Assembly (NCBI GenBank): GCA_021783455.1
Contig: JAJXTW010000001.1
Span: 1 to 45,460 of the forward strand
Reading direction: 5' to 3'
DNA from: Nitrospirota bacterium
GTDB lineage: Bacteria > Nitrospirota > UBA9217
DNA: 45,460 nucleotides
Positions 19,199 to 32,828 of the stretch are shown piece by piece. A program made the position numbers and the translations under genes. Each line of letters opens with the position of its first letter. Position 1 is the stretch's first letter. The notes under the pieces are model-generated. The model made no database searches. It had not been told where the DNA came from and was given only the letters and a program-made list of their open reading frames with translations.

Positions 19199-19245
19199 GT
19201 TCCAGCCGTTGGCTGTAACATTAAATATCGGATTACACGCTAAAC

Positions 19246-19277
19246 AAAAGGGGACCGGTAGAAACCGGTCCCCTTTT
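19246..19277. terminator. bidirectional intrinsic terminator
   Basis: AAAA-GGGGACCGGT-agaa-ACCGGTCCCC-TTTT, a perfect 10-bp GC-rich stem flanked by A and T runs. It lies between the convergent stomatin (+) and ferredoxin (-) genes. Confidence 0.8.
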
Positions 19278-19298: not shown

Positions 19299-19484
19299 TT
19301 ATATTTCGTTGACCGTTATGGCCTGCTGCGGGCAGTTCTCTACACAGGTCTGGCAGTTGATGCATTCGGACATGTTCACCGGCTCCGCCTTGCCGCCTTC
19401 CAGCTTGAATACGGACTGCGGGCAGACATTTACGCAGGTGCCGTCGCCGTCGCACTTGCCTTTGTCGACTGTTACCATGTACAT
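19299..19484 (-). CDS. small 7-Cys ferredoxin, CxxDxxC...CP + CxxCxxCxxxCP type (copy 1)
   Basis: 61 aa: MYMVTVDKGKCDGDGTCVNVCPQ...MSECINCQTCVENCPQQAI. GAAGGAGG lies upstream. Confidence 0.9.
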   Translation of the reverse strand: MYMVTVDKGKCDGDGTCVNVCPQSVFKLEGGKAEPVNMSECINCQTCVENCPQQAITVNEI

Positions 19485-19528
19485 TGTATCTGATTCCTCC
19501 TTCAGTAGAAATGAAATTCAAAAAGCAC

Positions 19529-19534
19529 ATTATA
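19529..19534 (-). promoter_or_regulatory. candidate -10 hexamer (TATAAT) for ferredoxin copy 1
   Basis: The reverse strand has a perfect TATAAT about 45 nt upstream of the ATG at 19484 and downstream of the dsrP terminator. No convincing -35 is present. Confidence 0.3.
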
Positions 19535-19575
19535 TTACCCGCCGGGGCCCGTAAAATCAAGCAAGAAATGAAGAT

Positions 19576-19606
19576 AAAAAAAGGCTCACCCGGTTGGGGT
19601 AAGCCT
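19576..19606 (-). terminator. intrinsic terminator after dsrP
   Basis: The reverse strand reads AGGCTTACCC-caac-CGGGTGAGCCT followed by T8. The 10-bp stem includes one G-U pair. It lies 25 nt after the dsrP stop. Confidence 0.75.
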
Positions 19607-19630
19607 TAGAAAAGAAACGCTCGGGTCTAA

Positions 19631-20803
19631 TTAATGTTCAATCTCGATTCCAGCCGTCCGCTCTCTAACCGAAATCGCTATCTTGTAAAGCATCGAGAGG
19701 ATCAAAAACCCAATGGCCCATACACCGAGCGTAATGAGCGCTTCCGGCATGGTCGGCCAGTATGGGTGGACTTCTTCAAAGGGATTCGGCACGAAACCGC
19801 CGATAATAAGACCGAACCCCTTGTCGATCCAGAGCGAAATGAAAAGCGACAGACAAGCGAAGGCGAGCAGGCCTTCCTTCTTTCGCGCAGCCGGAAATAC
19901 CAGGAGAAAGAGCGAGATGATCGCGAGGACGGTTGACGTCCACATCATAGGTACCAGCTCACTATGGCCCTCAAGCCCCACATAAAGATACAGGAAGGAG
20001 GCCGCATGACCCGGGATTCCGCTGTAGAAGGCCGTGAAAAACTCCAGCCCCAGAAGAAAGACGTTCGCGAACATGGCGTACGCCACAATCTTTCCAATTG
20101 CCTGGATGGCTTCTTTCCCTGGGTCGAACTTCGAGATTTTTCTAACGATCAATGCCAGGATGATCAAGAGGGCCGGACCTGCGGCAAATGCCGACGCGAG
20201 GAACCGTGCCGCCATGACGGCGCTGAGCCAGAAATGACGCGCCGGGAGACCTGAGTACAAGAAGGCCGTGACCGTGTGGATGCTGACCGCCCAGGGAATA
20301 GAGAGGTAAATGAAGAACTTGATCCACTTCGGCGGAGGCACACCCTTCCGATCCGCGCTCAAGGTTACCCATCCGACAAGGGCGTTGATGGCAAGATACC
20401 CCGACAGCACGACGGAATCCCAGAACATCACTGAATTCGGCGTGGGGTGCAGGATCACGTTCATGATCCTCATGGGCTGCCCCATGTCCACGAAGATGAA
20501 CAGGATGCACATGGTCACCGCCGAGATGGCAAGGAACTCGCCAAGGATGACGATCTTGCCGAATTTCTTAAAATCGTGCAGATAGTAGGGAATAACGAGC
20601 ATCACCGCCGAAGCGGCCACGCCGACGAGAAATGTGAATTGGCCGATGTACAGCCCCCAGGACACGTCCCGGTGCATTCCCGTGAGCCCCAGCCCGAATT
20701 GGAACTGCTGGATGTAGTAATAAACCCCTACTGCAGAAAGGGCACCGAGAAAGAAAAGCCATGCCCAGTATTTTTTCCCGCCTTCAAATGCTTTCTCAAG
20801 CAT
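19631..20803 (-). CDS. dsrP: DsrP, NrfD/PsrC-family integral membrane quinone-interacting subunit
   Basis: 390 aa with about 10 TM helices. It is the last gene of the M-K-J-O-P order and overlaps dsrO by 8 nt. Confidence 0.9.
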   Translation of the reverse strand: MLEKAFEGGKKYWAWLFFLGALSAVGVYYYIQQFQFGLGLTGMHRDVSWGLYIGQFTFLVGVAASAVMLVIPYYLHDFKKFGKIVILGEFLAISAVTMCILFIFVDMGQPMRIMNVILHPTPNSVMFWDSVVLSGYLAINALVGWVTLSADRKGVPPPKWIKFFIYLSIPWAVSIHTVTAFLYSGLPARHFWLSAVMAARFLASAFAAGPALLIILALIVRKISKFDPGKEAIQAIGKIVAYAMFANVFLLGLEFFTAFYSGIPGHAASFLYLYVGLEGHSELVPMMWTSTVLAIISLFLLVFPAARKKEGLLAFACLSLFISLWIDKGFGLIIGGFVPNPFEEVHPYWPTMPEALITLGVWAIGFLILSMLYKIAISVRERTAGIEIEH

Positions 20804-21626
20804 GATCGCTCCCTCCTATGACATAATAGACCGCCGGGCCCGTACCCAGTTCCGGTTTCCGCCTGATGGTCAACTGGGACGTTACGATCTTCCGGACCTC
20901 GGAATTTGGATCTTCGATGTCCCCGAAGAACATGGCGCCCTTGGGCGCGGCTTCTACGCATGCGGGAAGCTTTCCAACCTGGAGCCGCTCCGTGCAAAAA
21001 GTGCATTTTTCCACGACGCCTTTAGTCCTTGTCGGGTATGCCTTGTTCTCTGTCGCCGGATTGATCGCCTTGCGCGGGTCGGTCCAGTTGAAGCTCCGCG
21101 ACCCGTAGGGGCAGGCGGCCATGCAGAACCGGCACCCGATGCATCGGTGCATATCCTGCATCGTGATCCCATTGGGAAGTTTAAACGTGGCCTGAGTGGG
21201 ACAGACGCGAACGCACGGCGGGTTGTCACAGTGGTTGCACAGCACGATGAACGGCATGTCCTTGATGTGTTCGCTCATGAACTTGTTCTCGGAACCCGGG
21301 AAGGTGCGTTCATAGGGCTCCTCCCATATCCACTTGATTTCGAATTTCTTGTCCACGGTCCCGTCGGGATTCCGGAAGTCCGGCACATTGTGCGTCTGAT
21401 GACAGGCGGTGGTGACTTTCTTGATGTCCTCATCGGTCTTGAACTTACTCATATCGACCACCATAGCCCATCGCTTGGCAATCAGACCGTCCGGGTTTGG
21501 CTCCACCTGCGGCGGTTTCAGCCCCGGTTCCCAGATCGTATGCGTGGCTGACGCGACCGAGGCGCCGAATCCCAGAATGGAGGAGATGCCGGCAATTTTC
21601 AGAAATTGTCTCCTGTCCATGCTCAT
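20796..21626 (-). CDS. dsrO: DsrO, periplasmic (Tat-exported) 4x[4Fe-4S] ferredoxin-like subunit
   Basis: 276 aa with a twin-arginine leader (MSMDRRQFLKIAGISS...ASA). Cys clusters include CNHCDNPPCVRVCP, CIGCRFCMAACP and CTFC. An ATGA overlap with dsrJ is present. Confidence 0.9.
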   Translation of the reverse strand: MSMDRRQFLKIAGISSILGFGASVASATHTIWEPGLKPPQVEPNPDGLIAKRWAMVVDMSKFKTDEDIKKVTTACHQTHNVPDFRNPDGTVDKKFEIKWIWEEPYERTFPGSENKFMSEHIKDMPFIVLCNHCDNPPCVRVCPTQATFKLPNGITMQDMHRCIGCRFCMAACPYGSRSFNWTDPRKAINPATENKAYPTRTKGVVEKCTFCTERLQVGKLPACVEAAPKGAMFFGDIEDPNSEVRKIVTSQLTIRRKPELGTGPAVYYVIGGSDHA

Positions 21627-22051
21627 GATTTATTCTCCTCCTTCTCCATCGGCTGTATGTGACAATCAAAACAATACGGTTTGACCGCCATATAATTGTG
21701 GCATTGGTCGCAGAACTGTTTCTTGTTCGAGTGGCATTCGAGACATCCGTTTTGCAGGCTCATGTTGAATTTCCTGCCGCTCGTCATGCTGACGTACTGT
21801 CGGTTCATGTCGCGGACAACGGAGTCTCTCCAATTGTTCAGGAGCTGCATGTGCTCGGAACGCATATACTCCTTGGATTCAACGCACTCCTTTTTCCCAT
21901 ACTGCTTTTCCCACGCCTGGATCGCGGGCGTATCCGTTTTCAGTTCAGGCTTTGCGTTCACCTTTCCGATATTGTAGTAAAAGGGGAACGTCGCGATTCC
22001 GACGAAAACCATCAGCCCGATGAGTATTTTACCGCCATCGTAGAGTTTCAT
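21623..22051 (-). CDS. dsrJ: DsrJ, membrane-anchored trihaem cytochrome c
   Basis: 142 aa with an N-terminal anchor and three CxxCH motifs (CLECH, CDQCH, CFDCH). Confidence 0.9.
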   Translation of the reverse strand: MKLYDGGKILIGLMVFVGIATFPFYYNIGKVNAKPELKTDTPAIQAWEKQYGKKECVESKEYMRSEHMQLLNNWRDSVVRDMNRQYVSMTSGRKFNMSLQNGCLECHSNKKQFCDQCHNYMAVKPYCFDCHIQPMEKEENKS

Positions 22052-23670
22052 TAGGCCTTTTCCTCCTTCTGTTCAATTCCCGGAAGGGGTTCTCCGCGCA
22101 AGTCGGTGGTCCTCTCCTTCTCGCCGGTCATAACGAGGGCGTTCGCCACGAGTTCGTGGAGGCCGCAGACATTCACGCCGGGCACCCAGTAGTCCATAAG
22201 GGGTTTGAGCGTTGCCCGGTCAATGGCACAGACGTTGGCAAGCATGTTCACACCGTAATGCTCGTGAACGAATTTAACCGCGTTTGCGCGCGGAAATCCG
22301 CCCTTCATGCGGAGATCCATGTCTTCCGAGGCGTTCAAACCCGTGCCGCTGCCGCAACAGAAGGTTTTTTCCCGGATCGTGTCTTCCGGCATCTCAACAA
22401 AGTTATTGACCACGTTCTTGAGCACATATCGCGGTTCCTCAAGCATGCCCATGCCGCGCGCAACGTTACAGGAATCATGCCAGGTGACATTGAGGTGATC
22501 GTTCCGCTTCGGATCGAGCTTGAGTTTGTTGTTCTTGATCAGGTCTGCAGTGAATTCCGCAACGTGAACCATTTTCATCGATTTTGCGTTCTCGAAGACC
22601 GTACCGGTAATCGGCGATTTCGGGACTTCCAGGAAATCCGCCGGACCGTTCCAGGTGTCCATGTACTGGGAAAGCACCCGCCACATGTGGCCGCACTCGC
22701 CGCCCAGGATCCACTTCACACCCAGCCGTTTGGCCTCTGCATAAATTTTGGAGTTGAGCCGCTTGCCCATCTCGTTCGAGGTGAAGAATCCGAAGTTCCC
22801 GCCTTCCGAGGCATAGGTGCTCCAGGTGTAATCAAGCCCCAGTTCCTCGAACAGCATCAGGTATCCCATGCACGTATACGTGCCGGGGTCGGCAAACAGG
22901 TCGCCCGACGGCGTCACGAACAGAATCTCAGCGCCCTTCCGGTTGAACGTGGGTTTGATCCTCTTCCCCGTGACGGTCTCGATGTCGTCCAGCATATATT
23001 CGAGGTTGCCGACGATGGTATGAGGTTCGAGACCCAGATGGTTGCCCTTCATGTAGCAGTTCGAGACCGGGCCCGCGATCCATTCAATATTCAGGCCGAG
23101 CAGATTCAAGAGCTCGCGGCCGATGATCGTGATCTCCGCCTGGTCGATGCCGTAGGGGCAGAAGACCGAGCAGCGCCGGCACTCGGTGCATTGAAAGAAG
23201 TAGTACCACCATTCCTTCAGCACATCCAGGGTAAGTTCGCGAGCGCCCGCCATTTTGCCGAAGATCTTTCCGGCAAGGGTGAACTCCTTGCGATAGACCG
23301 AGCGAATGAGCTCGGCTCTGAGCACCGGCATGTTCTTCGGATCGCCGGTCCCGATAAAGAAGTGGCATTTGTCGGCACAGGCGCCGCAGCGCACGCAGAT
23401 GTCCATGAACAGCCGGAAGGACCGGTACTTTTCGAGCCGTTCCGCGATCCCCTCAAGGAGGATTTCTTTCCAGTTTTCCGGGAGTTTCCAGTCCGCGTCC
23501 GCCGGCCTCCAGTCCCGCGGGTTCGGGAAACCGACGATGTCAAGGCTTTTCGGCTTCGAGCCATGACAGAACATGCCCTCTTTGAACACAACGGGAGTAT
23601 CCATCCAGCTCGTTTTCGGCGGCGTGTAATCTATCTTTGACAGTTCTTCTGGTTTCGGAAGTTTCGCCAT
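22051..23670 (-). CDS. dsrK: DsrK, HdrD-like Fe-S (CCG-domain) catalytic subunit
   Basis: 539 aa. Ferredoxin-type motifs CVRCGACADKC and CTECRRCSVFCP are present, along with C-terminal CCG-type Cys motifs (FCCGSG). Confidence 0.95.
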   Translation of the reverse strand: MAKLPKPEELSKIDYTPPKTSWMDTPVVFKEGMFCHGSKPKSLDIVGFPNPRDWRPADADWKLPENWKEILLEGIAERLEKYRSFRLFMDICVRCGACADKCHFFIGTGDPKNMPVLRAELIRSVYRKEFTLAGKIFGKMAGARELTLDVLKEWWYYFFQCTECRRCSVFCPYGIDQAEITIIGRELLNLLGLNIEWIAGPVSNCYMKGNHLGLEPHTIVGNLEYMLDDIETVTGKRIKPTFNRKGAEILFVTPSGDLFADPGTYTCMGYLMLFEELGLDYTWSTYASEGGNFGFFTSNEMGKRLNSKIYAEAKRLGVKWILGGECGHMWRVLSQYMDTWNGPADFLEVPKSPITGTVFENAKSMKMVHVAEFTADLIKNNKLKLDPKRNDHLNVTWHDSCNVARGMGMLEEPRYVLKNVVNNFVEMPEDTIREKTFCCGSGTGLNASEDMDLRMKGGFPRANAVKFVHEHYGVNMLANVCAIDRATLKPLMDYWVPGVNVCGLHELVANALVMTGEKERTTDLRGEPLPGIEQKEEKA

Positions 23671-23672
23671 GA

Positions 23673-24668
23673 TTACTCCTTTTCTACCGGCAAGCCGGCA
23701 TTTTTCATTTTATCCCTGAAGTCGTCCTCATACTCCGCGTAGGTGTGAACATGGACCGGGTAGTTCCAGGGATTGATATGCCGCTTCACGCGGCTGGTGT
23801 TCGCCAGAACACGGGTAGGGCTCATGAAAACGCCGGCCATATGAACCAGCTTGCTGAAAGGGAAGTAGGCGAACAGCGTGCAGATAAGGAACAAGTGGAT
23901 ATAGAAGATAACGCTGATCGGATTCTGCGGTATTGACGGACTAAAACCGACCAGGCTCATGGTCAGCATCTTCACGCTCACGATATCGGTTTTAAGGAAG
24001 TATCTCATGAGCACGCCGGAGAGTGCGATGCCGAAGATCAAGAAGAGTGGGAAATAATCGTTCATGAGCGACAGATAGCGCATCTGGGGAATTGCGATCC
24101 TCCTGAGGAAAAGGTAGGTTATTGCGCCGAGCAACACCGCATCGGTCATATACAGGAGCGGCACGCCGATCTGGAGGAAACTGTCGAGCATTTCGACCAG
24201 CTGCACTGCCGCCGGTACCTGCTGGGTAAAGAACCGCAGGTGTCTGACCAGAATAATGAGAAATGACCAATGGAACGCCAAACCCGCAGCCCAGAGCCAT
24301 TTTGCCTCTCCGTACGTAAGCTGCGAATCGTCCCGAAGCTGTGTTTTCAGGTTTCTGAAGAGCGAGCGGAAGAACAGAACTTCGAGCGCCATCCTGCCCA
24401 ACACGCCAAGAACGCCGGAAGGATTTTCCAGCTTGCTGTATTTGATCCAGGGCAATGATTTCTGCTGTCCGCAGGTCGTAGGAATGCGGAAGGGATTCGG
24501 CGAGCTGCCCCATTTCAGAATGCGTACAATCATGAAAATGACAAAAATAGCTACCGCCAGATAGGGAATGACCACACCGAAGATGTACTGCATGTTCAGG
24601 ACATCCACTCCCACATAGGCTATCGCTGCGAGGATCAGCACTGCAATGAAAGAAATTATAGCTTTCAT
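23673..24668 (-). CDS. dsrM: DsrM, NarI-like dihaem cytochrome b membrane subunit
   Basis: 331 aa and polytopic, with conserved His in TM helices. It lies immediately upstream of dsrK. Confidence 0.9.
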   Translation of the reverse strand: MKAIISFIAVLILAAIAYVGVDVLNMQYIFGVVIPYLAVAIFVIFMIVRILKWGSSPNPFRIPTTCGQQKSLPWIKYSKLENPSGVLGVLGRMALEVLFFRSLFRNLKTQLRDDSQLTYGEAKWLWAAGLAFHWSFLIILVRHLRFFTQQVPAAVQLVEMLDSFLQIGVPLLYMTDAVLLGAITYLFLRRIAIPQMRYLSLMNDYFPLFLIFGIALSGVLMRYFLKTDIVSVKMLTMSLVGFSPSIPQNPISVIFYIHLFLICTLFAYFPFSKLVHMAGVFMSPTRVLANTSRVKRHINPWNYPVHVHTYAEYEDDFRDKMKNAGLPVEKE

Positions 24669-24725
24669 TTCGTTACCTCTTTTCGATTTAGGTTAGCAGC
24701 CGAGGCGATCTTTTAACCCCCTGTT

Positions 24726-25256
24726 TCAGTCCTGGTTGTCGACGATAAGACGCGCCTGCTGCAAGAGCCTGAAGGTCATATTTTTTGCTTCGTTTGCCTT
24801 GAGTTCGTAGATCTTTTCCCGGCATTTCATAAAAAGATCGAATGAAAAAAGCGCCAGGTCGTCGACAGCGGACTCAAAGACTGCCAGTTCTTCGGCAATT
24901 CCCTGTTGACCGAGAATCTCTTTTCCCAGCTCCTGCCGGACCACTTTCTTGAGTTGAAAGATGAAAGACACGGCCTCGGATGGCGAAAATTCCTGAATAG
25001 CACGGATCCGGATAATGCTGTCGAGAAACCGGGAAACAGTGTCGGGAATCATTCCCTGCAGCAGCGCGTCGAAAAGATGCTCGATTCCCTCCGAAAGGGT
25101 ATAACCGACCGGATTGGTGAACTGGGCCTTCTGCTTCCTCAGGAAAGTAGACGTCTCGTGCGGATAAGTCTCCACAACGGCATCAAACCATTTCTTCAGA
25201 ATAGCGGATTTCTTTTCTATCAAATAGTGGTTAAGGTTCATGTTCCCGTGAATCAT
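24726..25256 (-). CDS. dsrT: DsrT-like helical protein (RsbRD_N-type domain)
   Basis: About 176 aa, starting MIHGNMNLNHYLIEKKSAILKKWFDAVVETYP.., which is the RsbRD N-terminal-like pattern. It sits directly upstream of dsrM, as dsrT does in other dsr loci (from memory). I place the start at the ATG at 25256; the track uses the TTG at 25274. Confidence 0.55.
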   Translation of the reverse strand: MIHGNMNLNHYLIEKKSAILKKWFDAVVETYPHETSTFLRKQKAQFTNPVGYTLSEGIEHLFDALLQGMIPDTVSRFLDSIIRIRAIQEFSPSEAVSFIFQLKKVVRQELGKEILGQQGIAEELAVFESAVDDLALFSFDLFMKCREKIYELKANEAKNMTFRLLQQARLIVDNQD

Positions 25257-25298
25257 ACGCAAGCACCCCTGCAACGATTGTCGCAGGGGAATATCCTG

Positions 25299-25712
25299 TT
25301 AAAAGAACAACAGATGCTTGACAGACTCCATTTCTTTTTGAATATCCGCAAAGGACACGAATTTTGTTTTCAACTCGGCTCCCATATCTTCGGCATCGGT
25401 GATCACGTTTTCTTCCTTGAGACCAAGACGGGTCATGTCTTCCTTGCAGACCCAGACCGGCAGGTCGATGAGCAGGCAGCTCTTGATGTGGCTCTCCGTG
25501 CTCGTCACGCCGTAGACTTTCATGGCTTGCTGGTCCTTGACCATATTTAATACACCGTCACCGACGAACACGATGATCGGGACCACCGAGTCGCCGTCAT
25601 CCATATAGATCTCTGCGGTCTGACTCGCGATAGCATGGGTGAGCGCAAGACGGGCATTTTCGCTCTTGTACGGCGGTCGTTGCACAACGAACAATAAATT
25701 TACGGCACCCAT
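25299..25712 (-). CDS. DsrF/TusC-like protein (DsrE/F/H fold)
   Basis: 137 aa. It starts LLFVVQRPPYKSENARLALTHAIA, contains FVGDGV, and ends HLLFF like TusC/DsrF. The TAAATG junction links it to the upstream DsrE-like gene. Confidence 0.7.
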   Translation of the reverse strand: MGAVNLLFVVQRPPYKSENARLALTHAIASQTAEIYMDDGDSVVPIIVFVGDGVLNMVKDQQAMKVYGVTSTESHIKSCLLIDLPVWVCKEDMTRLGLKEENVITDAEDMGAELKTKFVSFADIQKEMESVKHLLFF

Positions 25713-26072
25713 TTACTCACCTCCGATATGTAGTAGCTTGTCGGTCTTGACGGTCTTGGCCAGGTACCAGTCCATGCTGGCGCGCTTCATGCCCTCGGGC
25801 ACATCTTCCTTGTGGTAGCCCCGGGCCTCTGCACAGGCTTCGCACACAGTGACTTCCATACCTTTGCTCATGAGTTCCTTCATAAGCTTCTCGTTGTGCG
25901 AGTAATCCTTGAACGGTTTCTGCCCCTTTTTGGCCATCATCACGGCGTTCCCGGAGAGCCACATGTTCACTTTGTGGCCTTTGGCAATTCCCGCTTCGGC
26001 AAGCTTGAATGCAAAATCAAGCGACATCGAACCGACCAGTGAAGAAAATACTCCAAACGTCAATTCTCCCAT
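25713..26072 (-). CDS. DsrE/TusD-like sulfurtransferase-fold protein
   Basis: 119 aa. It contains AKGHKVNMWLSGNAV and the Cys motif VTVCEACAEARG at the position of the DsrE/TusD active-site Cys. AAGGAGG lies upstream. Confidence 0.7.
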   Translation of the reverse strand: MGELTFGVFSSLVGSMSLDFAFKLAEAGIAKGHKVNMWLSGNAVMMAKKGQKPFKDYSHNEKLMKELMSKGMEVTVCEACAEARGYHKEDVPEGMKRASMDWYLAKTVKTDKLLHIGGE

Positions 26073-26143
26073 TCTATCCTCCTTAACCCTTATATGATGG
26101 ACGCCGGACCAATACTGCCCCGTCGCCCTTCTCGTTTACTATC

Positions 26144-26446
26144 CTATAGCCAGGCCGTCTTTTCGTAATCATTCATGATCAGGTCGACGATGTCGCCGTA
26201 ACTGACTATTTTTACTTTTGAATTGACATTCGCGGCTGTGAACCCTCGTGTCGTCAGATCGTCGGACAATACGTAAAAGTTCGCACCGGATTTGGAAAGC
26301 ACAGGGGAATCCTTGCCGTTCTCTTTCACGACAGCATGATAGACGCCGTTCCCCACAAGGATCACTCCCATTTTTTCGGCCTTCATTCTTTCAAAGCTGT
26401 CTTCTGTTCTTCTCCAGTCGCTTAGAAATACCGCTAGTTTCATCAT
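26144..26446 (-). CDS. DsrH/TusB-like protein
   Basis: 100 aa. It contains VILVGNGVY and FYVLSDDLTTRGF and has a C-terminal ..KTAWL typical of TusB/DsrH. There is no Cys in the whole protein. GGGGAGGTGAG lies upstream. Confidence 0.65.
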   Translation of the reverse strand: MMKLAVFLSDWRRTEDSFERMKAEKMGVILVGNGVYHAVVKENGKDSPVLSKSGANFYVLSDDLTTRGFTAANVNSKVKIVSYGDIVDLIMNDYEKTAWL

Positions 26447-26472
26447 CTCACCTCCCCAGAGAAATTCATGAT

Positions 26473-26508
26473 AAAAAAACAGGGGATTAGTTATTCAACT
26501 ATCCCCTG
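26473..26508 (-). terminator. intrinsic terminator after ferredoxin copy 2
   Basis: The reverse strand reads CAGGGGAT-(13-nt loop)-ATCCCCTG followed by T7. The T-run ends only 26 nt before the DsrH-like ATG (26446). Confidence 0.7.
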
Positions 26509-26530
26509 GGTATGACTGCTCGTTACCGCA

Positions 26531-26716
26531 TTATATCTCGGCAACCGTGATCGCCTGCTGCGGACAGTTCTCAGCGCAGGTCAGGCAATTAATGCATTCC
26601 GACATGTTCACCGGCTCGGCCTTACCGCCGTCCAGTTTAAACACAGACTGCGGACAGACGTTGACGCAGGTGCCGTCACCATCGCATTTCCCTTTGTCGA
26701 CTGTTACCATGTACAT
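26531..26716 (-). CDS. small 7-Cys ferredoxin, CxxDxxC type (copy 2)
   Basis: 61 aa, identical to copy 1 at 57 of 61 residues (differences E29D, Q45L, V48A, N59A). GAGGAGGAAG lies upstream. Confidence 0.9.
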   Translation of the reverse strand: MYMVTVDKGKCDGDGTCVNVCPQSVFKLDGGKAEPVNMSECINCLTCAENCPQQAITVAEI

Positions 26717-26925
26717 GGTGATTACTTCCTCCTCACAATTACATTAGATACGCGAGCCTGCCGTTTTTCCCTTGAACCCAAGCGCTGCGCGTTTCAACAG
26801 CCCGGTGGTTGGGGCAGACCGCAGGGATTCGGCAGAGGTCTCTACCGGCATCGAGAAATCATCCGGCACGCTGCATTTTTGTAAATCCCTGCATGGGCGG
26901 GGCAGGGGATCAAGCGGAGCAGATA

Positions 26926-27261
26926 CTATACGCAACCGGTCGGCTTCGGAAGACCGGCAATTTTGCAAGCCTGCTTTGCAGGTCCGCCCGGATAGAGTTC
27001 ATAGAGATACTTGGTGTTGCCTTTTTCCGGCCCAAGCTTCTTGCCGATTTCCTTCACCAGGATTTTGATCATCGGCGCAATCTGATACTGTTTGTAATAG
27101 TCGCGGAGGAAATTCACAACTTCCCAATGCTGCTCGCTCATGTCAATGCCTTCAACCTCCGCAAAGTACTTGGCGACGTCCATGTTCCAGTCGTCCAGAT
27201 TAGCCAAGAAGCCATCCTCATCCACTTCGATATTCTTACCTTTTACTGAAATTGTTCCCAT
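26926..27261 (-). CDS. dsrC: DsrC (sulfite reductase-associated, two C-terminal redox Cys)
   Basis: 111 aa: GFLANLDDWNMDVAKYFA...HWEVVNFLRDYY...ACKIAGLPKPTGCV. Both conserved C-terminal-arm cysteines are present. Confidence 0.95.
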   Translation of the reverse strand: MGTISVKGKNIEVDEDGFLANLDDWNMDVAKYFAEVEGIDMSEQHWEVVNFLRDYYKQYQIAPMIKILVKEIGKKLGPEKGNTKYLYELYPGGPAKQACKIAGLPKPTGCV

Positions 27262-27380
27262 TTTCCTGTCCCCTTTCGTTAAATTAGTCGGGTGCCTTCC
27301 AGCTCCCTCATCATGATGTTCCCAGCTTCTGTCCTGACTTCCCTTATGATTTGCCCTCTAAAATCCGGCGCTGCAGCCTG

Positions 27381-27746
27381 TTATGCAGGTTTCCGTTTCA
27401 CTTTCAAAAAATACAGCCGTCCATCTCCATCCATAAACCCCCGGCTGATGCCGGTAGAACGGTGTGTCCGCAGGTCGTAATTGAGCACTGCATCTTCGTA
27501 GTCTTCTCCGGCAACCATATCTGACAGGTCTTTTCCAATCTGATCCGCTGCCAGGGCGAGAGCCTGCATCATCACTTCTCCCACATTCTTGCTCGTGGGG
27601 TCCGCGATGTAGAATGCGCCACAGACGGCGCACGTGCCGCCCGATATGCTTTCCATGGTGCTTATTTTGATCGTCGCCGGGCGTTCGAACTTTGTCCGAC
27701 AAAACGGACAAACGGGTTCAACTCCTTCTCGTGCTCCAGACCTCAA
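27381..27746 (-). CDS. hypothetical Cys4 zinc-ribbon protein between dsrN and dsrC
   Basis: The ORF is open from 27821. The first start that does not overlap dsrN is the TTG at 27746 (about 121 aa). It contains CPFC-x27-CAVC, then an acidic helical region and a C-terminal GRLYFLKVKRK. I recognise no family. Confidence 0.5.
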   Translation of the reverse strand: MRSGAREGVEPVCPFCRTKFERPATIKISTMESISGGTCAVCGAFYIADPTSKNVGEVMMQALALAADQIGKDLSDMVAGEDYEDAVLNYDLRTHRSTGISRGFMDGDGRLYFLKVKRKPA

Positions 27747-27760
27747 AAATACCTGCTTTC

Positions 27761-29155
27761 TTATGCGCGGTGTTTCCGTGCATGATGTTCCTCTGCCCTT
27801 TTCACCATAGCAGGAGCCCATTCTGGCGTGCCCACGGCATGCAGATGCGTATAGGAAGCCAACACATTCTTATACACGATGCCGTCGTTCTTCCCGTCTA
27901 TCCCGCTGCCTCGTGCGACATGATACGCCATCGGCGGCAGTGCGTCAAGATTTGAAACCCGTGAATAATGAAATTCATGCCCGCGAATGCCCACTCCGCT
28001 GCCGAGGAATGGGCTGTTGCGTCCGGTTTCTAATACCGTGTATCCATGCGCTTGCGGTCGTTTCTCAAGGATAAAATCGAGCGGCAATACCGCAGCCATG
28101 GCATATCGTTTACCTTCTGCAGTAAGGCTTCGGCCGAGATAGATCAGGCCGCCGCACTCGGCATAAATGGGCAAGCCATTTTCTGCGGCGTTTCTTACTG
28201 AGGCGCAAAACCCCCCATTTGCGGCCAGTTCTGCGGCCTGTGTCTCGGGAAATCCGCCGCCGATGTAGAGAGCATCGATATCATCGGGCAGCAGTCCGTC
28301 TTTTAAAGCGTTTATTTCCTTGAGAACCGCTCCGTGTCGCTCAAGCTCCTCGAGATTGTCCGGGTAGTAGAATTGAAATGCCTTGTCCCTTACTACACCG
28401 ATAACGACCCGCTTTCCTTCCGGAGGTAGCTCTGATTGTTCGTTTCTTAGGCTCTCAATCTCCGGTGCGGTACAAGCCATTTCCCAGATTGCATCAAGAT
28501 CGAGATATTGCTCGGCGATTGCCGCCGAAGCTTGAATCGCCTGTTCTACTTCGGGGTGTTCGTGAAACGGCGTCAATCCCATATGTCGTTCGGGAAATTC
28601 GCCATGCCGTTGTTTGGGAACGGCACCAAAAACGGGAAGGCCGCTGCTCCCCGCGATGGCCTTCCTGATGACGTTTTCATGACGTCCTGATGAAACGTTG
28701 TTTAAAATGATTCCGCCGATTGCAACATCGGCATCATACTGTTGCAGTCCCAGAACAACCGCCGCAACTGTCGCCGACGCCTTCGTGCCGTCTACGATCA
28801 AAGCAACAGGTGTCTTCAGCAGTTTTGACAACCGGGCCGTACTGTATGATCCTGATTCATCAACTCCGTCATATAGCCCGCGATTGCCTTCGATGATCGC
28901 AGCATCTACTCCGGCTGCATGTTCCACAAACGACTTGCGAATGCGGTCCTGATCCATCATAAACAGATCAAGATTGTAACAGGACCTGCCTGCAGCAACT
29001 CCGAGCCAGCCAGCATCGATAAAGTCCGGGCCTTTCTTAAAAACAGCAATCTGCCGGCCCTTGTTCCGCCAGGCTGCAGTTATGCCGATCGAGAAAGTTG
29101 TCTTTCCCAGACCGCCGCGGGTGGCTGAGATTGCCAGCCTCGGGATAGCCTGCAT
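27761..29155 (-). CDS. dsrN: DsrN (cobyrinic acid a,c-diamide synthase family; sirohaem amidase)
   Basis: 464 aa. It has a CbiA N-terminal P-loop (ISATRGGLGKTTFSIG) and a C-terminal glutamine amidotransferase domain (YAECGGLIYL, GHEFHYS). The TAATG junction links it to dsrD. Confidence 0.9.
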   Translation of the reverse strand: MQAIPRLAISATRGGLGKTTFSIGITAAWRNKGRQIAVFKKGPDFIDAGWLGVAAGRSCYNLDLFMMDQDRIRKSFVEHAAGVDAAIIEGNRGLYDGVDESGSYSTARLSKLLKTPVALIVDGTKASATVAAVVLGLQQYDADVAIGGIILNNVSSGRHENVIRKAIAGSSGLPVFGAVPKQRHGEFPERHMGLTPFHEHPEVEQAIQASAAIAEQYLDLDAIWEMACTAPEIESLRNEQSELPPEGKRVVIGVVRDKAFQFYYPDNLEELERHGAVLKEINALKDGLLPDDIDALYIGGGFPETQAAELAANGGFCASVRNAAENGLPIYAECGGLIYLGRSLTAEGKRYAMAAVLPLDFILEKRPQAHGYTVLETGRNSPFLGSGVGIRGHEFHYSRVSNLDALPPMAYHVARGSGIDGKNDGIVYKNVLASYTHLHAVGTPEWAPAMVKRAEEHHARKHRA

Positions 29156-29391
29156 TACGATTGAGGATTGGCCGAACCTTCCGTGTGCGGGATCTCGACA
29201 GCAGTACCGCCGAAGTATGAATAGACAAGCTTGCCGCCGTCTATCAGCTCACGAAGAGCGGCTTTCACCTCTTCTTTTGTCGCGCCCTCGGCCTCCAGAG
29301 CATTGCTGATGTCCTTGGGCTTCAGCTTCTTTTTGCCCTGCATCTTTTCCACCATCTCATATACTTTTTTCTGCACTTCCGCAGCGTCCAT
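29155..29391 (-). CDS. dsrD: DsrD (small winged-helix protein of reductive dsr loci)
   Basis: 78 aa and Lys-rich (GKKKLKPKDISNAL), with ..GKLVYSYFGGTAVE resembling the DsrD ..EYWSSGSTT region. It sits directly after dsrB. Confidence 0.8.
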   Translation of the reverse strand: MDAAEVQKKVYEMVEKMQGKKKLKPKDISNALEAEGATKEEVKAALRELIDGGKLVYSYFGGTAVEIPHTEGSANPQS

Positions 29392-29424
29392 AGTCGTCCT
29401 CCAGGTGAGTTGTATACAACATGT

Positions 29425-29457
29425 AAACCGGCCCCGGATTCATCCAGGGCCGGTTTT
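29425..29457 (-). other. intercistronic GC-rich stem-loop between dsrB and dsrD
   Basis: AACCGGCCC-(12-nt loop)-GGGCCGGTT, a 9-bp perfect stem. On the coding (reverse) strand only TTT follows it. Confidence 0.5.
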
Positions 29458-29477
29458 ATATTACACCTTTTACACCA

Positions 29478-30551
29478 TTATTCCCACTTGAACGTCGGAG
29501 TCATTCTGAATGTATCGCGAGCAAAGGTGAAATCGTCAATGTGCTGATAGGTGAACGGGATGCCGGTGAGCTTGAAGAACCGCTCCCAGCCGATACGCTC
29601 GATCCATTCGCCCATACGCTCGTGCTTGCGCGCATCCTTTGCGTAGACCTCCACGATGTGCTTCACCGCCTGCACAACCTCGGGCCAGCGGGGCGGATTG
29701 TTCGGGAGAAAAGGGATGGCCAGCTTGGACATGCGAGGCACGCCGCGGGCGTTCGAAACCTTGCCGCCCACATAGATGGAGATGCCGTCGCCGTGAGCAT
29801 CGGCCAGGGGGAGCGAGGGGCACATGGTATAGCAGTTGCCGCAGTACATGCAGCGCTCTTCTTTGATCTTGACCGACTTCGCTGCCGGGTTAGGCGCAAT
29901 AGCGCCGGTCGGGCAGGAAGCGATGGTCGTTGGGATCTCGCACTGGTTCGCAATGGTCGCTTCGTTCACCTTCGGGGGCTTGCGGTGAATGCCGAGGATG
30001 GCGATGTCGGAGCAATGCACCGCGCCGCACATGTTAAGGCAGCAGGCCAGGGCGATCCTGACGCGCGCCGGCAGAGTCTTGGTGGTGAAATACTCATGGA
30101 GTTCATCCATGACGGCCTTCACCACACCCGAAGCGTCGGTTGCAGGAGTGTGGCAGTGGATCCAACCCTGGGTATGCACCACATTGCTGATGCCGTATCC
30201 GATGCCGCCGACGAGGTGTCCGTCCTTCTTGAGCGCTGTCTTGAGCGGCTCGACCTGGTCCTTCGCAGGAAAGAATTCGACGTTGTGACGGGTCGTCCAA
30301 CGCAGATGGCCGCCGCTGAATTTGTCGGCGTACGCGCACATCTCGCGAACGTAATCGGTGCTGACGAGACGGGGTGTTGCTATGCGCACGGTGTACAGTT
30401 CGTCTCCGGTCTCGGAAACGTGCTTCATCGTGCCTTTATCGATAACTTCATGATATTTCCATTTCCCGTAGTTTTTTGCGATCACGGGAGGCAAAAATTT
30501 GCTAAAGTGAGGAGCTCCAATATCAGTTATTCTCTTCGGTTTGTCAGCCAT
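29478..30551 (-). CDS. dsrB: dissimilatory sulfite reductase beta subunit
   Basis: 357 aa. Features are [32 protein letters not shown] and a ferredoxin insert ([18 protein letters not shown]). Confidence 0.95.
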
Positions 30552-30571
30552 TCTAAGTTATCCTCCTTAAG

Positions 30572-31750
30572 TTATTTCACGTCTTCCGGTGACCAGAACA
30601 CGTACGGGTTCGACCTCGGGGCTTTCACCATCTGCGGCACGGGCGGCAGGCCGGTTGATTCAAGCATGGACCTCATGCCCATGCGGTCGACCAGTTCGCC
30701 GATACGTTCGCGGTTCTTGCCATGCTCGTCCCACCACTCCCAGAGCTTGCGGATCAGGTCTTCGATGTTGTCGAACGGCTTTTCAAGTTTCATAAAGGGA
30801 ACAATAACCCAGCTCATGAGAGCGCCGGTCACGATCGGGGCCTTGCCGCCGAGCATGATGGTCGCGCCTTTTTCCTTGCCCGGGCGGAGTGCCTTGGGCA
30901 TGCGGTTGATGCAATGCATGCAGCGGGTGCAATCCTTGTTGTTGATCTTGAGTGTGCTTCCGTCCCAGCTCATGCAGTGGGTCGGGCACATATCGCACAC
31001 TTCGGTCTTGATGTCCATGTCCTTGGAGCAGTTCTTCACCTCTGCCTGGTCGATACGGATATCGTCACGCCAAGTGCCGATGATGGACATGTCGGCGCGG
31101 GCAATGGCGGCGGTGCAGTCGTTGGCGCAGCCCGAAACTTTGATTTTAAACTTGTAGGGGAATGCAGGACGATGGAGCTCATCCTGGAACTTGTGAGTAA
31201 GCGTATCGCAGATTTCCATCGAGTCGATGTTTGAAAACTCGCAACGGGAATTGCCCACGCAGCAGCTCGGAGTGCGGAGGCAGGAACCGGAACCGCCGAG
31301 GTCCCAGCCCTTTGCCGTGGTTTCGGCAAAAATGGCCTCGAGCTTGTCGGTTTGCGTGCCGAGGAGCACCAGGTCGCCGGTGGACCCGTGCATGTTCGTC
31401 AGTCCGCTGCCATATTTGTCCCAGATATCCATGAGCTCGCGCAGCGCGTTTGAAGTATAATAATTTCCCGCAGGCTGGTTGATACGGACCGTATGGAAAT
31501 GAGCAACACCCGGATATTCTTCCGGCAGGTCGCAGTAACGGCCGATAACGCCGCCGCCGTAACCGAGAACGCCCACGATACCGCCGTGCTTCCAGTGGGT
31601 AACTTTATCTCTATACGACCTCTCAAGGATATTGAGCAGATCTTTCGCCGTATTACTCTTTACTGCGGCTTTTTTAATCTCCTTTACGAAACTCGGCCAT
31701 GCGCCTTTTTCCAGGTCGTCTAGCATCGGTGTCTTGCCATCTTTGCTCAT
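30572..31750 (-). CDS. dsrA: dissimilatory sulfite reductase alpha subunit
   Basis: 392 aa. Features are HWKHGGIVGV, the sirohaem/Fe-S Cys motifs CLRTPSCC and GCANDC, and a ferredoxin insert (CDMCPTHC, CTRCMHCINRMP). AAGGAGG lies upstream. Confidence 0.95.
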   Translation of the reverse strand: MSKDGKTPMLDDLEKGAWPSFVKEIKKAAVKSNTAKDLLNILERSYRDKVTHWKHGGIVGVLGYGGGVIGRYCDLPEEYPGVAHFHTVRINQPAGNYYTSNALRELMDIWDKYGSGLTNMHGSTGDLVLLGTQTDKLEAIFAETTAKGWDLGGSGSCLRTPSCCVGNSRCEFSNIDSMEICDTLTHKFQDELHRPAFPYKFKIKVSGCANDCTAAIARADMSIIGTWRDDIRIDQAEVKNCSKDMDIKTEVCDMCPTHCMSWDGSTLKINNKDCTRCMHCINRMPKALRPGKEKGATIMLGGKAPIVTGALMSWVIVPFMKLEKPFDNIEDLIRKLWEWWDEHGKNRERIGELVDRMGMRSMLESTGLPPVPQMVKAPRSNPYVFWSPEDVK

Positions 31751-31926
31751 CAGGAAATCCTCCTTATAGATTTATCTCACGAATTATGTGAACTGCTCAT
31801 TGAGACGCTTGTGCTTTACTAAACTGATACGGATCTTAACAATTCTCATTCCTCATGCGCCCTCCAAAGCTGCAGAGAGTACTTTATCTGTCTCTAAGGT
31901 GAAGCGGTCCCCCTTTCTGAAATAAA

Positions 31927-31955
31927 ATTGTAGAAATGTAAAAAATTAAGACCAA
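31927..31955 (-). promoter_or_regulatory. candidate sigma-70 promoter for dsrA (TTGGTC-N17-TACAAT)
   Basis: The reverse strand reads ccaccTTGGTC-ttaattttttacatttc-TACAATttt. It would give a leader of about 170 nt. It is the only reasonable -35/-10 pair I found within 300 nt of dsrA. Confidence 0.25.
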
Positions 31956-32828
31956 GGTGGGTTCAAATTAATGGCAATCGTTTCTGTTTATTTAACTTTG
32001 CCTGCTGCTTTTTTTATTATTACGCTATTTTAGATTTAAGACGCTGAGACATGAGATTGTATGTGCACAACCCATATTAGTCAAATAAAAAAAACTAATC
32101 GTACCATAACTTCGCGTAATTATCACAGTTTAGAATATGACAAAAACAATCAAATAAATACAATAACTTATACTAGCAAAATACTCATGCAGATAGGCAT
32201 GTTTCATTTGCAAGTAGCCTGCCATCGGGCTATTCATAAATTATGAACTTAAACCATTTATTAATCATAATCTTAGATTTAATAATAATTATGCTTATCC
32301 GGTCAACGCATCAAACGGGTAATTTTACCAGAACAGCAAAAAACCAAAATGAAACTATAATGTTAAGGCTTCTTTCTGAACGCTTTATCCAGAAAGAAAC
32401 TGGTTGGACTAAGCCGTTGCGCGCCACGTCGCTATGGGATTTCAAATGATTAGCCGCCAAGCAAATCCAATAACCGACAAGGTGAAATCATGATACGACA
32501 AACGGTCTTCGGGTTCAAGATAGGAAAAACGAGCGAAACACTGACCGCCCAGAGTGAGGTAGGATGTCAATAGTAGACACCAAGCCCTTCATGCTGCCAG
32601 TTGCCCGGCGTAGAACTTTTTTACATAAGCCACAGGGGAAAGAGGCATCGCAGGATCAGTGCGCCTGATTGGGGAATTTGAGCGAAAAAGTCCCCGCGAA
32701 AAGAGACCGGGCTGCTCTTTGAGGTTGTTGTGAGATCAAGGAGGGCGAGCGGGTTTCAAAAACCGGTCGCAGACGCTTCAAGAGGGCCTGCTCATTTTCT
32801 ATCGCTGCTCTTGGGCTTGGGACCCCGA

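Follow-up and report, generated by a model that had tools for sequence, protein, structure and literature searches.

A DsrH-DsrE-DsrF-like gene trio within a reductive-type dsr locus of an uncultivated Nitrospirota bacterium: a probable persulfide relay to DsrC

Genome surveys separate a 'sulfate reducer' from a 'sulfur oxidiser' by marker genes, with dsrD on the one side and dsrEFH together with dsrL on the other. A 45,460-bp stretch of a Nitrospirota genome (the complete contig JAJXTW010000001.1 of assembly GCA_021783455.1, GTDB lineage UBA9217; the whole stretch is called the window below) carries in a 12.5 kb dsr block a dsrD-like gene as well as three small genes of the DsrH, DsrE and DsrF type, here called the trio or, after their order, H-E-F. 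What is the role of such a trio in a locus of the sulfate-reducer type? An earlier note on this DNA, made from the letters alone, had suggested a sulfur-relay input to DsrC in a reductive or reversible context. The present analysis lends this suggestion indirect support: the trio probably acts as a persulfide relay to DsrC and works with DsrMKJOP. The concept is already published, for dsrD with dsrEFH in 2018 and as 'DsrEFH type II' in 2026. What remains of value is a distinct, well-conserved H-E-F lineage overlooked by standard annotation, the physical place of this lineage inside the dsrTMKJOP operon of a single Nitrospirota clade, and its reappearance next to dsrMK both in archaea and in a minimal Dsr operon that branches deeply. 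Coordinates are positions in the window; genes were taken from the listing of open reading frames (ORFs) and from Pfam and NCBIfam scans.

All 17 genes of the dsr block lie on the minus strand. Within the trio, the DsrH-like gene (26144-26446) encodes 100 aa and matches PF04077 with 45 bits, the DsrE-like gene (25713-26072) encodes 119 aa and matches PF02635 with 54 bits, and the DsrF-like gene (25299-25712) encodes 137 aa and matches PF02635 with 39 bits; its best NCBIfam match was tusC_dsrF. All three subunits pass the Pfam gathering score (families DsrH, DsrE and DsrE). The canonical complex, type I, was represented by 80 dsrABEFHCMK loci from metagenomes, fetched with a DsrE fragment of Allochromatium vinosum and TusD, and TusBCD by the genome of Escherichia coli K-12. 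Profile comparison by hhalign paired E with DsrE (93.3%), F with DsrF (97.4%) and H with DsrH (97.9%); cross-subunit pairs were weak and the correspondence was one-to-one. Judged by these profiles, the trio proteins are true homologues of DsrH, DsrE and DsrF, subunit for subunit. Among PDB sequences, the DsrH-like protein matched A. vinosum DsrH best (2hy5_C, E 5e-5) and the DsrE-like protein E. coli YchN (1JX7, E 8e-5), which shares the CxxC...RG motif of the DsrE-like protein. YchN is a homo-oligomer of unknown function. The PDB search with the DsrF-like protein gave no meaningful match, thus its assignment needed the profile-profile comparison. A structure was predicted for the E-like subunit alone; at a predicted local distance difference test (pLDDT) score of 92, the best Foldseek match was A. 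vinosum DsrE (2hy5_A, template modelling (TM) score 0.79), followed by YchN and TusD.

Identity to the known complexes is low, for E, F and H about 21, 19 and 25% to type I and likewise about 21, 19 and 25% to TusD, TusC and TusB (18-25% overall). The DsrE-like protein reached 25 bits against TIGR03012 (cut-off 89.25), the DsrF-like protein 36.4 bits against TIGR03010 (cut-off 94.15) and the DsrH-like protein 47.2 bits against TIGR03011 (cut-off 49.2), all below threshold, and every match to the TusBCD equivalogs NF001237, NF001238 and NF010035 was far below its cut-off. The cysteines are distinctive. In the alignment, Cys77 of the DsrE-like protein falls on Cys78 of DsrE and TusD, the residue that binds sulfur. 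All 83 homologues have both Cys77 and Cys80, which makes an invariant CxxC that is also kept in the sister groups of the trio. Cys89 of the DsrF-like protein is conserved to 99%, at a position where TusC has a cysteine and type I DsrF an aspartate. The DsrH-like protein has no cysteine in any of 80 homologues and a phenylalanine at the aligned position; DsrH-Cys20 is therefore missing.

The earlier note had left room for a clustering of the trio with TusBCD; none was found, the trio being equally distant from TusBCD and from canonical DsrEFH. E. coli TusBCD (PDB 2D1P) does have the same fold, with TusD Cys78 equivalent to Cys77 and a TusC cysteine at the site of Cys89, the best NCBIfam families are joint Tus/Dsr models, in the annotation of the Joint Genome Institute (JGI) the E-like protein is a 'tRNA 2-thiouridine synthesizing protein D', and an archaeal relative adjoins IscS-IscU. 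A TusBCD-type complex for tRNA 2-thiouridine or general biosynthetic sulfur delivery, with an incidental adjacency to dsr genes, is nevertheless very improbable: with 19-25% the identity to TusBCD is no better than that to DsrEFH, the scores stay below the equivalog cut-offs, the partners in the window are dsr genes and a two-Cys DsrC rather than TusE or MnmA, the trio is co-oriented with dsrTMKJOP and not separated from it by a terminator, and the linkage to dsr genes is kept across several layouts and two domains of life.

The position within the locus points to the Dsr machinery as well. The order dsrA, dsrB, dsrD, dsrN, zinc-ribbon ORF, dsrC, ferredoxin gene (fdx), H-E-F, dsrT, dsrM, K, J, O, P and a second fdx had been read correctly in the earlier note, and ORFs and domain matches agree with it. 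The two terminators that it placed in this order were also recovered. An intrinsic-type hairpin followed by seven T residues stands at 26473-26508 between the first ferredoxin gene and the DsrH-like gene; it was missed by the consensus terminator scan and is visible on inspection of the sequence. Another intrinsic-type hairpin with an 11-bp stem and a T run lies 3' of dsrP (19571-19607). The description of the junctions as mostly overlapping or abutting was overstated: 7 of 16 are of this kind, including those between dsrM, K, J, O and P (+2, -1, -4 and -8 nt), and the remaining gaps measure 20-209 nt. The locus reads as two transcription units, dsrABDN-zinc ribbon-dsrC-fdx and H-E-F-dsrTMKJOP. 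The trio is co-oriented with dsrTMKJOP, the second unit is free of internal terminators, and in one clade the trio is apparently transcribed together with dsrTMKJOP. Its place at the head of that unit, downstream of a terminator, supports the relay. The dsrT gene (24726-25256/25274; gene-caller form 176 aa; PF14361 RsbRD_N, 80 bits) is directly upstream of dsrM (23673-24668), followed by dsrK (22051-23670), dsrJ (21623-22051, three CxxCH motifs), dsrO (20796-21626) and dsrP (19631-20803); across dsrMKJOP the Pfam scan returned the set Nitrate_red_gam, Fer4_8/CCG, Fer4_11 and NrfD.

Relatives of the E-like protein were sought in one genome per GTDB species. They were present in at least 200 species-level genomes, and the best 80 were examined: all are labelled as Nitrospirota metagenome-assembled genomes (MAGs) except one with a Deferribacteres label and one unnamed bacterium. 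In the loci L003-L046, with an E-like identity of at least 78%, the exact order of the window was present wherever the contig was long enough. This layout, H-E-F between dsrC-fdx and dsrT, occurs in about 44 species-level genomes, several of them with contigs of 0.3-3 Mb, and due to the identical order the arrangement is not a chance juxtaposition. The window's genes recur in separate ENA assemblies. With 532 members in the 90%-identity cluster of the window DsrA, this group of organisms is common in metagenomes. Conservation of the trio in the window clade matches that of DsrAB, with median identities of 89% for E, 85% for H and 83% for F compared to 88% for DsrA, 89% for DsrB, 76% for DsrM and 69% for DsrN. 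The contig is metagenome-assembled, and mixed dsr repertoires have been interpreted as remnants of evolutionary transitions by Klier et al. 2024 (PMC11406059). An assembly or binning chimera, or a decaying remnant of an oxidative pathway, is practically negligible as an explanation here, given that independent assemblies of about 44 species-level genomes, and separate ENA assemblies as well, arrived at one and the same order, the ORFs are intact, the conservation equals that of DsrAB and the catalytic cysteine is invariant. Chimera and chance juxtaposition were rejected on the recurrence in independent assemblies.

One long contig of the window clade (L006, CAWFSF010000006.1, 2.35 Mb) is a mosaic relative to the window: DsrA, DsrC, E and F are 90-95% identical, DsrB 79%, DsrD 55%, and dsrT with dsrMKJOP 41-62%; H and dsrN were not detected in this locus. 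Recombinational replacement of modules or indel errors of long reads could be the cause.

The more distant Nitrospirota loci (L047-L082, E-like identity 64-69%; the sister clade), among them those of Thermodesulfovibrionales, Ca. Sulfobium and Ca. Magnetobacteriaceae, have the three genes in the same H-E-F order but placed differently: behind dsrP-fdx, in divergent orientation to the dsr cluster, or at another site. The gene tusA follows H-E-F directly in 34 of these 36 loci, that is in all whose contig reaches there, and in about half of the 36 the trio adjoins dsrMKJOP. An exhaustive profile search of 1.84 billion representatives yielded 185 matches at E <=0.001, which shows a family isolated in sequence space as sampled by this search; its nearest outgroups are 39-45% identical. 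Archaeal outgroup loci have the order H-E-F-dsrM-dsrK-thioredoxin (archaeon BMS3Bbin15, a Juan de Fuca metagenome, and an archaeon with archaellin genes). A compact operon is present in locus L172 of an unclassified MAG (GCA_964606475.1, CAZSHE010000038.1, 1-6170) with H-E-F-tusA-dsrK-dsrM-dsrC-dsrA-dsrB; its DsrA is 36% identical to the window DsrA and falls outside the reductive and the oxidative clade in a paralogue-rooted neighbour-joining tree. Across bacteria and archaea dsrMK, not dsrAB, is the most constant neighbour of the trio. Farther relatives with the same H-E-F order stand beside TusA-YeeE-rhodanese or, in an archaeal relative, beside IscS-IscU.

Two of the archaeal loci contain a second, smaller DsrE-fold gene (L088 5452-6244, L089 5325-6117) of 100 aa with a single Cys61 in VAMCLHSFEELG, followed by two small ORFs without Pfam match (98-101 aa and 56 aa). 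This additional gene set is divergent and lies beside H-E-F-dsrM-dsrK-thioredoxin, and may represent a second trio of these genomes, similar to the YTD type that is discussed below.

The sulfite reductase next to the trio is clearly of the reductive type by sequence comparison. The products of dsrA (30572-31750; TIGR02064, 567 bits; protein MDA8421734.1, reductive-type alpha subunit) and dsrB (29478-30551; TIGR02066, 497 bits) were compared with both groups. The window DsrA is 58-60% identical to DsrA of Archaeoglobus fulgidus and Desulfovibrio vulgaris and 44-48% identical to 13 oxidative DsrA; it scored 516-531 bits against the solved reductive enzymes (A. fulgidus, Desulfovibrio, Desulfomicrobium) and at most 405 bits against 41 DsrA from canonical oxidative dsrABEFHCMK loci, and the window DsrB at most 356 bits against oxidative DsrB. 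In the paralogue-rooted tree, the phylogenetic placement proposed in the earlier note, the window DsrA formed one clade with other Nitrospirota, A. fulgidus and D. vulgaris (100/100 bootstraps), and the oxidative DsrA were a separate clade (100/100 bootstraps). Oxidative references were also sought in viral contigs by a scan with a DsrA alignment, which gave no relative, and in plasmids by tblastn of DsrA, which gave no match. DsrAB of related aquifer Nitrospirota belong to the reductive lineages 10 (class UBA9217) and 13 (Thermodesulfovibrionia UBA6902) (PMC10591310, PMC11033732). The clade of the window DsrAB has no cultured physiology, and the gene set does not find its explanation in an already known physiology of the clade, a possibility that the earlier note had considered.

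The dsrC gene (26926-27261; PF04358, 161 bits) encodes the two-Cys form that the earlier note had read, ending in CKIAGLPKPTGCV with Cys99 and Cys110; both C-terminal cysteines are 100% conserved in 51 homologues. The gene at 29155-29391 is a probable dsrD. In favour of this earlier assignment are the position directly 3' of dsrB, which is the canonical one, the size of 78 aa and the winged-helix fold; the Pfam DsrD match of 18.6 bits is below the cut-off of 24.2. A weak PDB profile match to DsvD (1ucr, E 0.61) covers nearly the full length. Modelled from the single sequence (pLDDT 71), the protein is a winged helix of generic type, and the fold search, which lists DsrD 1wq2 at rank 46, was not specific for DsrD. 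The sub-threshold score probably explains why most Thermodesulfovibrionia with reductive dsrAB were reported to 'lack dsrD' (PMC11033732). The dsrD-like gene and the reductive DsrAB argue for a competence in sulfite reduction, and in gene content the locus is a complete reductive-type dsr set of an uncultivated Nitrospirota bacterium.

For the trio we infer a DsrH/DsrE/DsrF-homologous sulfurtransferase complex. Sulfane sulfur from TusA or another persulfide donor would be bound as persulfide on Cys77 of the DsrE-like subunit and passed on to the penultimate cysteine of DsrC, and the loaded DsrC would be processed by DsrMKJOP and DsrAB. The relay would thereby be an entry point for zero-valent sulfur into a Dsr system of 'sulfate-reducer type'. 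It may serve the oxidative half of sulfur disproportionation, or the oxidation of sulfide or sulfur by reversal of DsrAB; alternatively, sulfane sulfur may be converted to sulfide through DsrC and DsrMK. The sulfur transfer has biochemical precedents. In A. vinosum, DsrEFH transfers sulfur to DsrC via DsrE-Cys78 (PMC3397948), and for cable bacteria, with a reductive DsrAB, a transfer from TusA over one DsrE cysteine of a DsrEFH-like complex to DsrC was shown biochemically in 2026 (PMC13293266).

Several observations weigh against this relay. DsrH-Cys20, absent here, is essential in vivo in A. vinosum (PMC3397948); the cable-bacteria complex likewise lacks it (PMC13293266). The window clade, the window and about 44 loci, has no tusA, yeeE or rhodanese gene within 10 kb. 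The inventory of dsrL, sat, aprAB, qmo and sqr is confined to one 45-kb contig; outside the dsr block sat, apr, qmo, dsrL, tusA and sqr were not found on this contig, the rest of which holds regulators and housekeeping genes. No cultured organism was among the named homologues of the trio. A homologue search seeded with a protein of a 'Thermodesulfovibrio sp.' MAG is suggestive in the same sense, the best 120 matches being from uncultured sources with most entries nameless. The neighbourhood of distant H-E-F relatives, IscS-IscU or TusA-YeeE-rhodanese, suggests that the fold family is a general sulfur-trafficking device and not specific for Dsr. Finally, the invariant Cys80 and the conserved cysteine of F are not explained by a simple relay.

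These additional cysteines motivate a different function: instead of donating to DsrC, the complex would itself be a redox-active carrier of sulfur, with DsrMK or thioredoxin as partner. Cys80 would resolve the persulfide on Cys77, so that H2S is set free and the two cysteines are joined in a disulfide (or a trisulfide), which DsrK or thioredoxin would re-reduce; the outcome would be a route for the reduction of S0, polysulfide or thiosulfate parallel to DsrC. Besides the invariance of the CxxC in 83 homologues and in the sister groups, the model of the E-like subunit is consistent with such a carrier: it places Cys77 at the end of a beta-strand and Cys80 in the first turn of the next helix. 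A strand-end cysteine and a cysteine in the first helix turn are the geometry of redox-active CxxC motifs. The preference for dsrMK over dsrAB as neighbour and the thioredoxin gene after dsrK in the archaeal loci would agree with it too. On the other hand, canonical DsrE and TusD function with a single cysteine, E. coli YchN has a CxxC without a known reductase role, and the Nitrospirota dsr clusters never lack a gene for a two-Cys DsrC. We consider such a carrier unlikely and retain the relay to DsrC as the probable function.

How does the trio relate to the described DsrEFH complexes? Type I, as in A. vinosum (PDB 2HY5), likewise consists of three paralogous DsrE-fold subunits, its active-site cysteine of DsrE is kept in the trio, and its genes are likewise found beside dsrC and dsrMK. 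The differences are considerable. The order is E-F-H in type I and H-E-F in the window; the identity of 18-25% goes along with scores below the cut-offs of TIGR03010, TIGR03011 and TIGR03012; DsrH-Cys20 of type I is lacking in the trio, which has instead the extra Cys80 in E and the conserved cysteine in F; the window F has an insertion of about 12 residues relative to type I, and the window E lacks about 11 residues that type I has inserted behind the RG motif. Type I is paired with the oxidative rDsrAB and with dsrL in the absence of dsrD, whereas the trio is paired with a reductive DsrAB, a dsrD-like gene and dsrT; dsrL was found neither in the locus nor on the 45-kb contig.

Closer in several respects is 'DsrEFH type II', described by Plum-Jensen et al. 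in May 2026 in 985 genomes, mainly of Desulfobacterota and Nitrospirota, and proposed to enable sulfur oxidation in organisms whose DsrAB is reductive (PMC13293266). The common features are a DsrEFH-like complex with less than 30% identity to type I, a reductive DsrAB, a syntenic three-gene cluster, a conserved cysteine in E, a DsrH without Cys20, an adjacent tusA (in the trio family this holds for the sister Nitrospirota clade), and an occurrence in Nitrospirota and beside dsrMK in archaea (PMC13293266, PMC13047784). The 'subtype 1' of type II is the most type I-like, is mostly from Nitrospirota, and has archaeal clusters adjoining dsrMK; the authors applied a hidden Markov model (HMM) cut-off of >80 bits (PMC13293266). 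The only cultured member of the Nitrospirota listed with type II, Dissulfurispira thermophila, has a YeeE-linked cluster. Other features differ. The active site of the Electronema aureum type II protein, taken from mutagenesis primers, is GEKI-C67-PFRGF compared to VTV-C77-EACAEARGY in the window. Among the 150 nearest representatives of the trio family was no CPFRG-type protein, a degenerate DNA scan of metagenome contigs for the GEKICPFRGF motif found nothing, and 1.46 Mb of fetched loci contained no ORF with it. The cable-type F and H 'do not form proper alignments' with the canonical F and H, whereas the window F and H align. The gene order differs between the type II of cable bacteria and the trio. 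The synteny of type II with tusA and yeeE/yedE, the YTD cluster, was not observed: the window clade has neither gene within 10 kb, the sister clade has tusA without yeeE, and no yeeE was present within 10 kb in any Nitrospirota locus examined. The chances that the window family is already among the 985 genomes are about even; the description of subtype 1 fits, the active-site motif and the synteny differ.

A further reading concerns the age of the family. H-E-F could be a third, old DsrEFH lineage, neither of canonical nor of YTD type, that was associated with DsrMK and DsrC since before the split of reductive and oxidative enzymes. The occurrence in Nitrospirota, in Hydrothermarchaeota-like archaea as H-E-F-dsrMK, and in the H-E-F-tusA-dsrKMCAB operon of L172 is the basis for this reading, which we put forward tentatively and with more doubt than confidence. 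If it is true, a persulfide relay into DsrC or DsrMK would be part of the early Dsr metabolism, and the handling of zero-valent sulfur beyond sulfite reduction would be an early trait and not a late invention of sulfur oxidisers.

The backbone of the locus is known from Thermodesulfovibrio yellowstonii and Ca. Sulfobium (PMC5812927), where dsrABDN, a small ORF, dsrC, dsrT and dsrMKJOP follow each other with a reductive DsrAB and dsrD. In Nitrospirota, and in many newly found lineages besides, it is normal for all dsr genes to sit in one cluster (PMC5812927, PMC6018805). In T. yellowstonii, a studied sulfate reducer of the phylum, dsrC (A0003) adjoins dsrT (A0004) and the trio is absent from this position (PMC5812927), whereas in the window fdx-H-E-F stands between these genes and a second fdx follows dsrP. 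In Ca. Sulfobium-like MAGs (L079, L055, L056) the module H-E-F-tusA is located downstream of dsrP-fdx; Zecchin et al. 2018 (PMC5812927) did not mention an H-E-F module. Ferredoxin 1 (26531-26716) and ferredoxin 2 (19299-19484), both of 61 aa and members of the Pfam Fer4 families, are paralogues with 93% identity of the proteins and about 87% of the DNA; the similarity ends at the ends of the coding sequences. Each gene has its own 3' hairpin with a T run (26473-26508 and 19242-19273), and together they bracket the H-E-F-dsrTMKJOP unit. With the single fdx of the sister clade, located between dsrP and H-E-F-tusA, the pair makes it look as if, in the window, fdx-H-E-F had moved in upstream of dsrT and one copy of fdx had stayed at the old place. 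In the first cluster motif of the ferredoxins, CxxDxxCxxxCP, an aspartate replaces the second cysteine.

Earlier surveys touched the trio in part. Genomes with both dsrD and dsrEFH have been a topic since 2018, in those cases with canonical DsrEFH and DsrL (PMC6018805, PMC11406059). With these studies and the description of type II (PMC13293266), the earlier note's premise of dsrEFH as a marker of the oxidative pathway is out of date. Diao 2023 found no DsrEFH in reductive Nitrospirota (PMC10591310), and Mosley 2024 reported 'dsrFH, but no dsrE' in Thermodesulfovibrionia (PMC11033732). These gaps match the sub-threshold scores of the trio, a family that is overlooked or half-detected by the usual HMM and KEGG rules. 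The trio-bearing Nitrospirota genomes come from aquifers, soils and sediments. If sulfane sulfur is indeed delivered to DsrC, abundant subsurface Nitrospirota may disproportionate or oxidise sulfur besides reducing sulfate, and their predicted role in sulfur and nitrogen cycling would change. The trio fits what was proposed in 2026, namely that in many 'sulfate reducers' zero-valent sulfur can enter the Dsr pathway as well, and its physical fusion with a dsr operon is stronger genomic evidence than the YTD cluster for DsrEFH-like complexes serving the Dsr machinery.

The remaining genes of the block are dsrN (27761-29155), for a CobB-like sirohaem amidase (NF002204, 436 bits, and GATase_3), and the zinc-ribbon ORF (27381-27746), recognised by its motif CPFC...CAVC. 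Homologues of the latter are located between dsrN and dsrC in most Nitrospirota loci, and it occupies the position of THEYE_A0002 in T. yellowstonii; the protein had no Pfam match. Translation probably starts with the TTG at 27746, giving 121 aa as called in related contigs; the longest ORF, to 27821, would overlap dsrN by 61 nt. Upstream of dsrA, the region 31751-32700 has a G+C content of about 46% compared to about 54%, and holds just two small unannotated ORFs (32061-32449, plus strand). On the minus strand of this region, TTGACT-17-TACAAT at 32056-32084 resembles a sigma-70 promoter best; with a promoter there, the dsrA leader would be about 300 nt long. At the other end of the window, a TauE/SafE-family membrane protein is encoded on the minus strand (PF01925, 1700-2626); the start of its gene abuts the stop of an Alph_Pro_TM gene (864-1700), with the TauE/SafE gene just upstream. 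Proteins of the TauE family are commonly annotated as sulfite or sulfonate exporters. Past the end of the window, a matching ENA contig continues with universal-stress-protein genes and a TatA gene.

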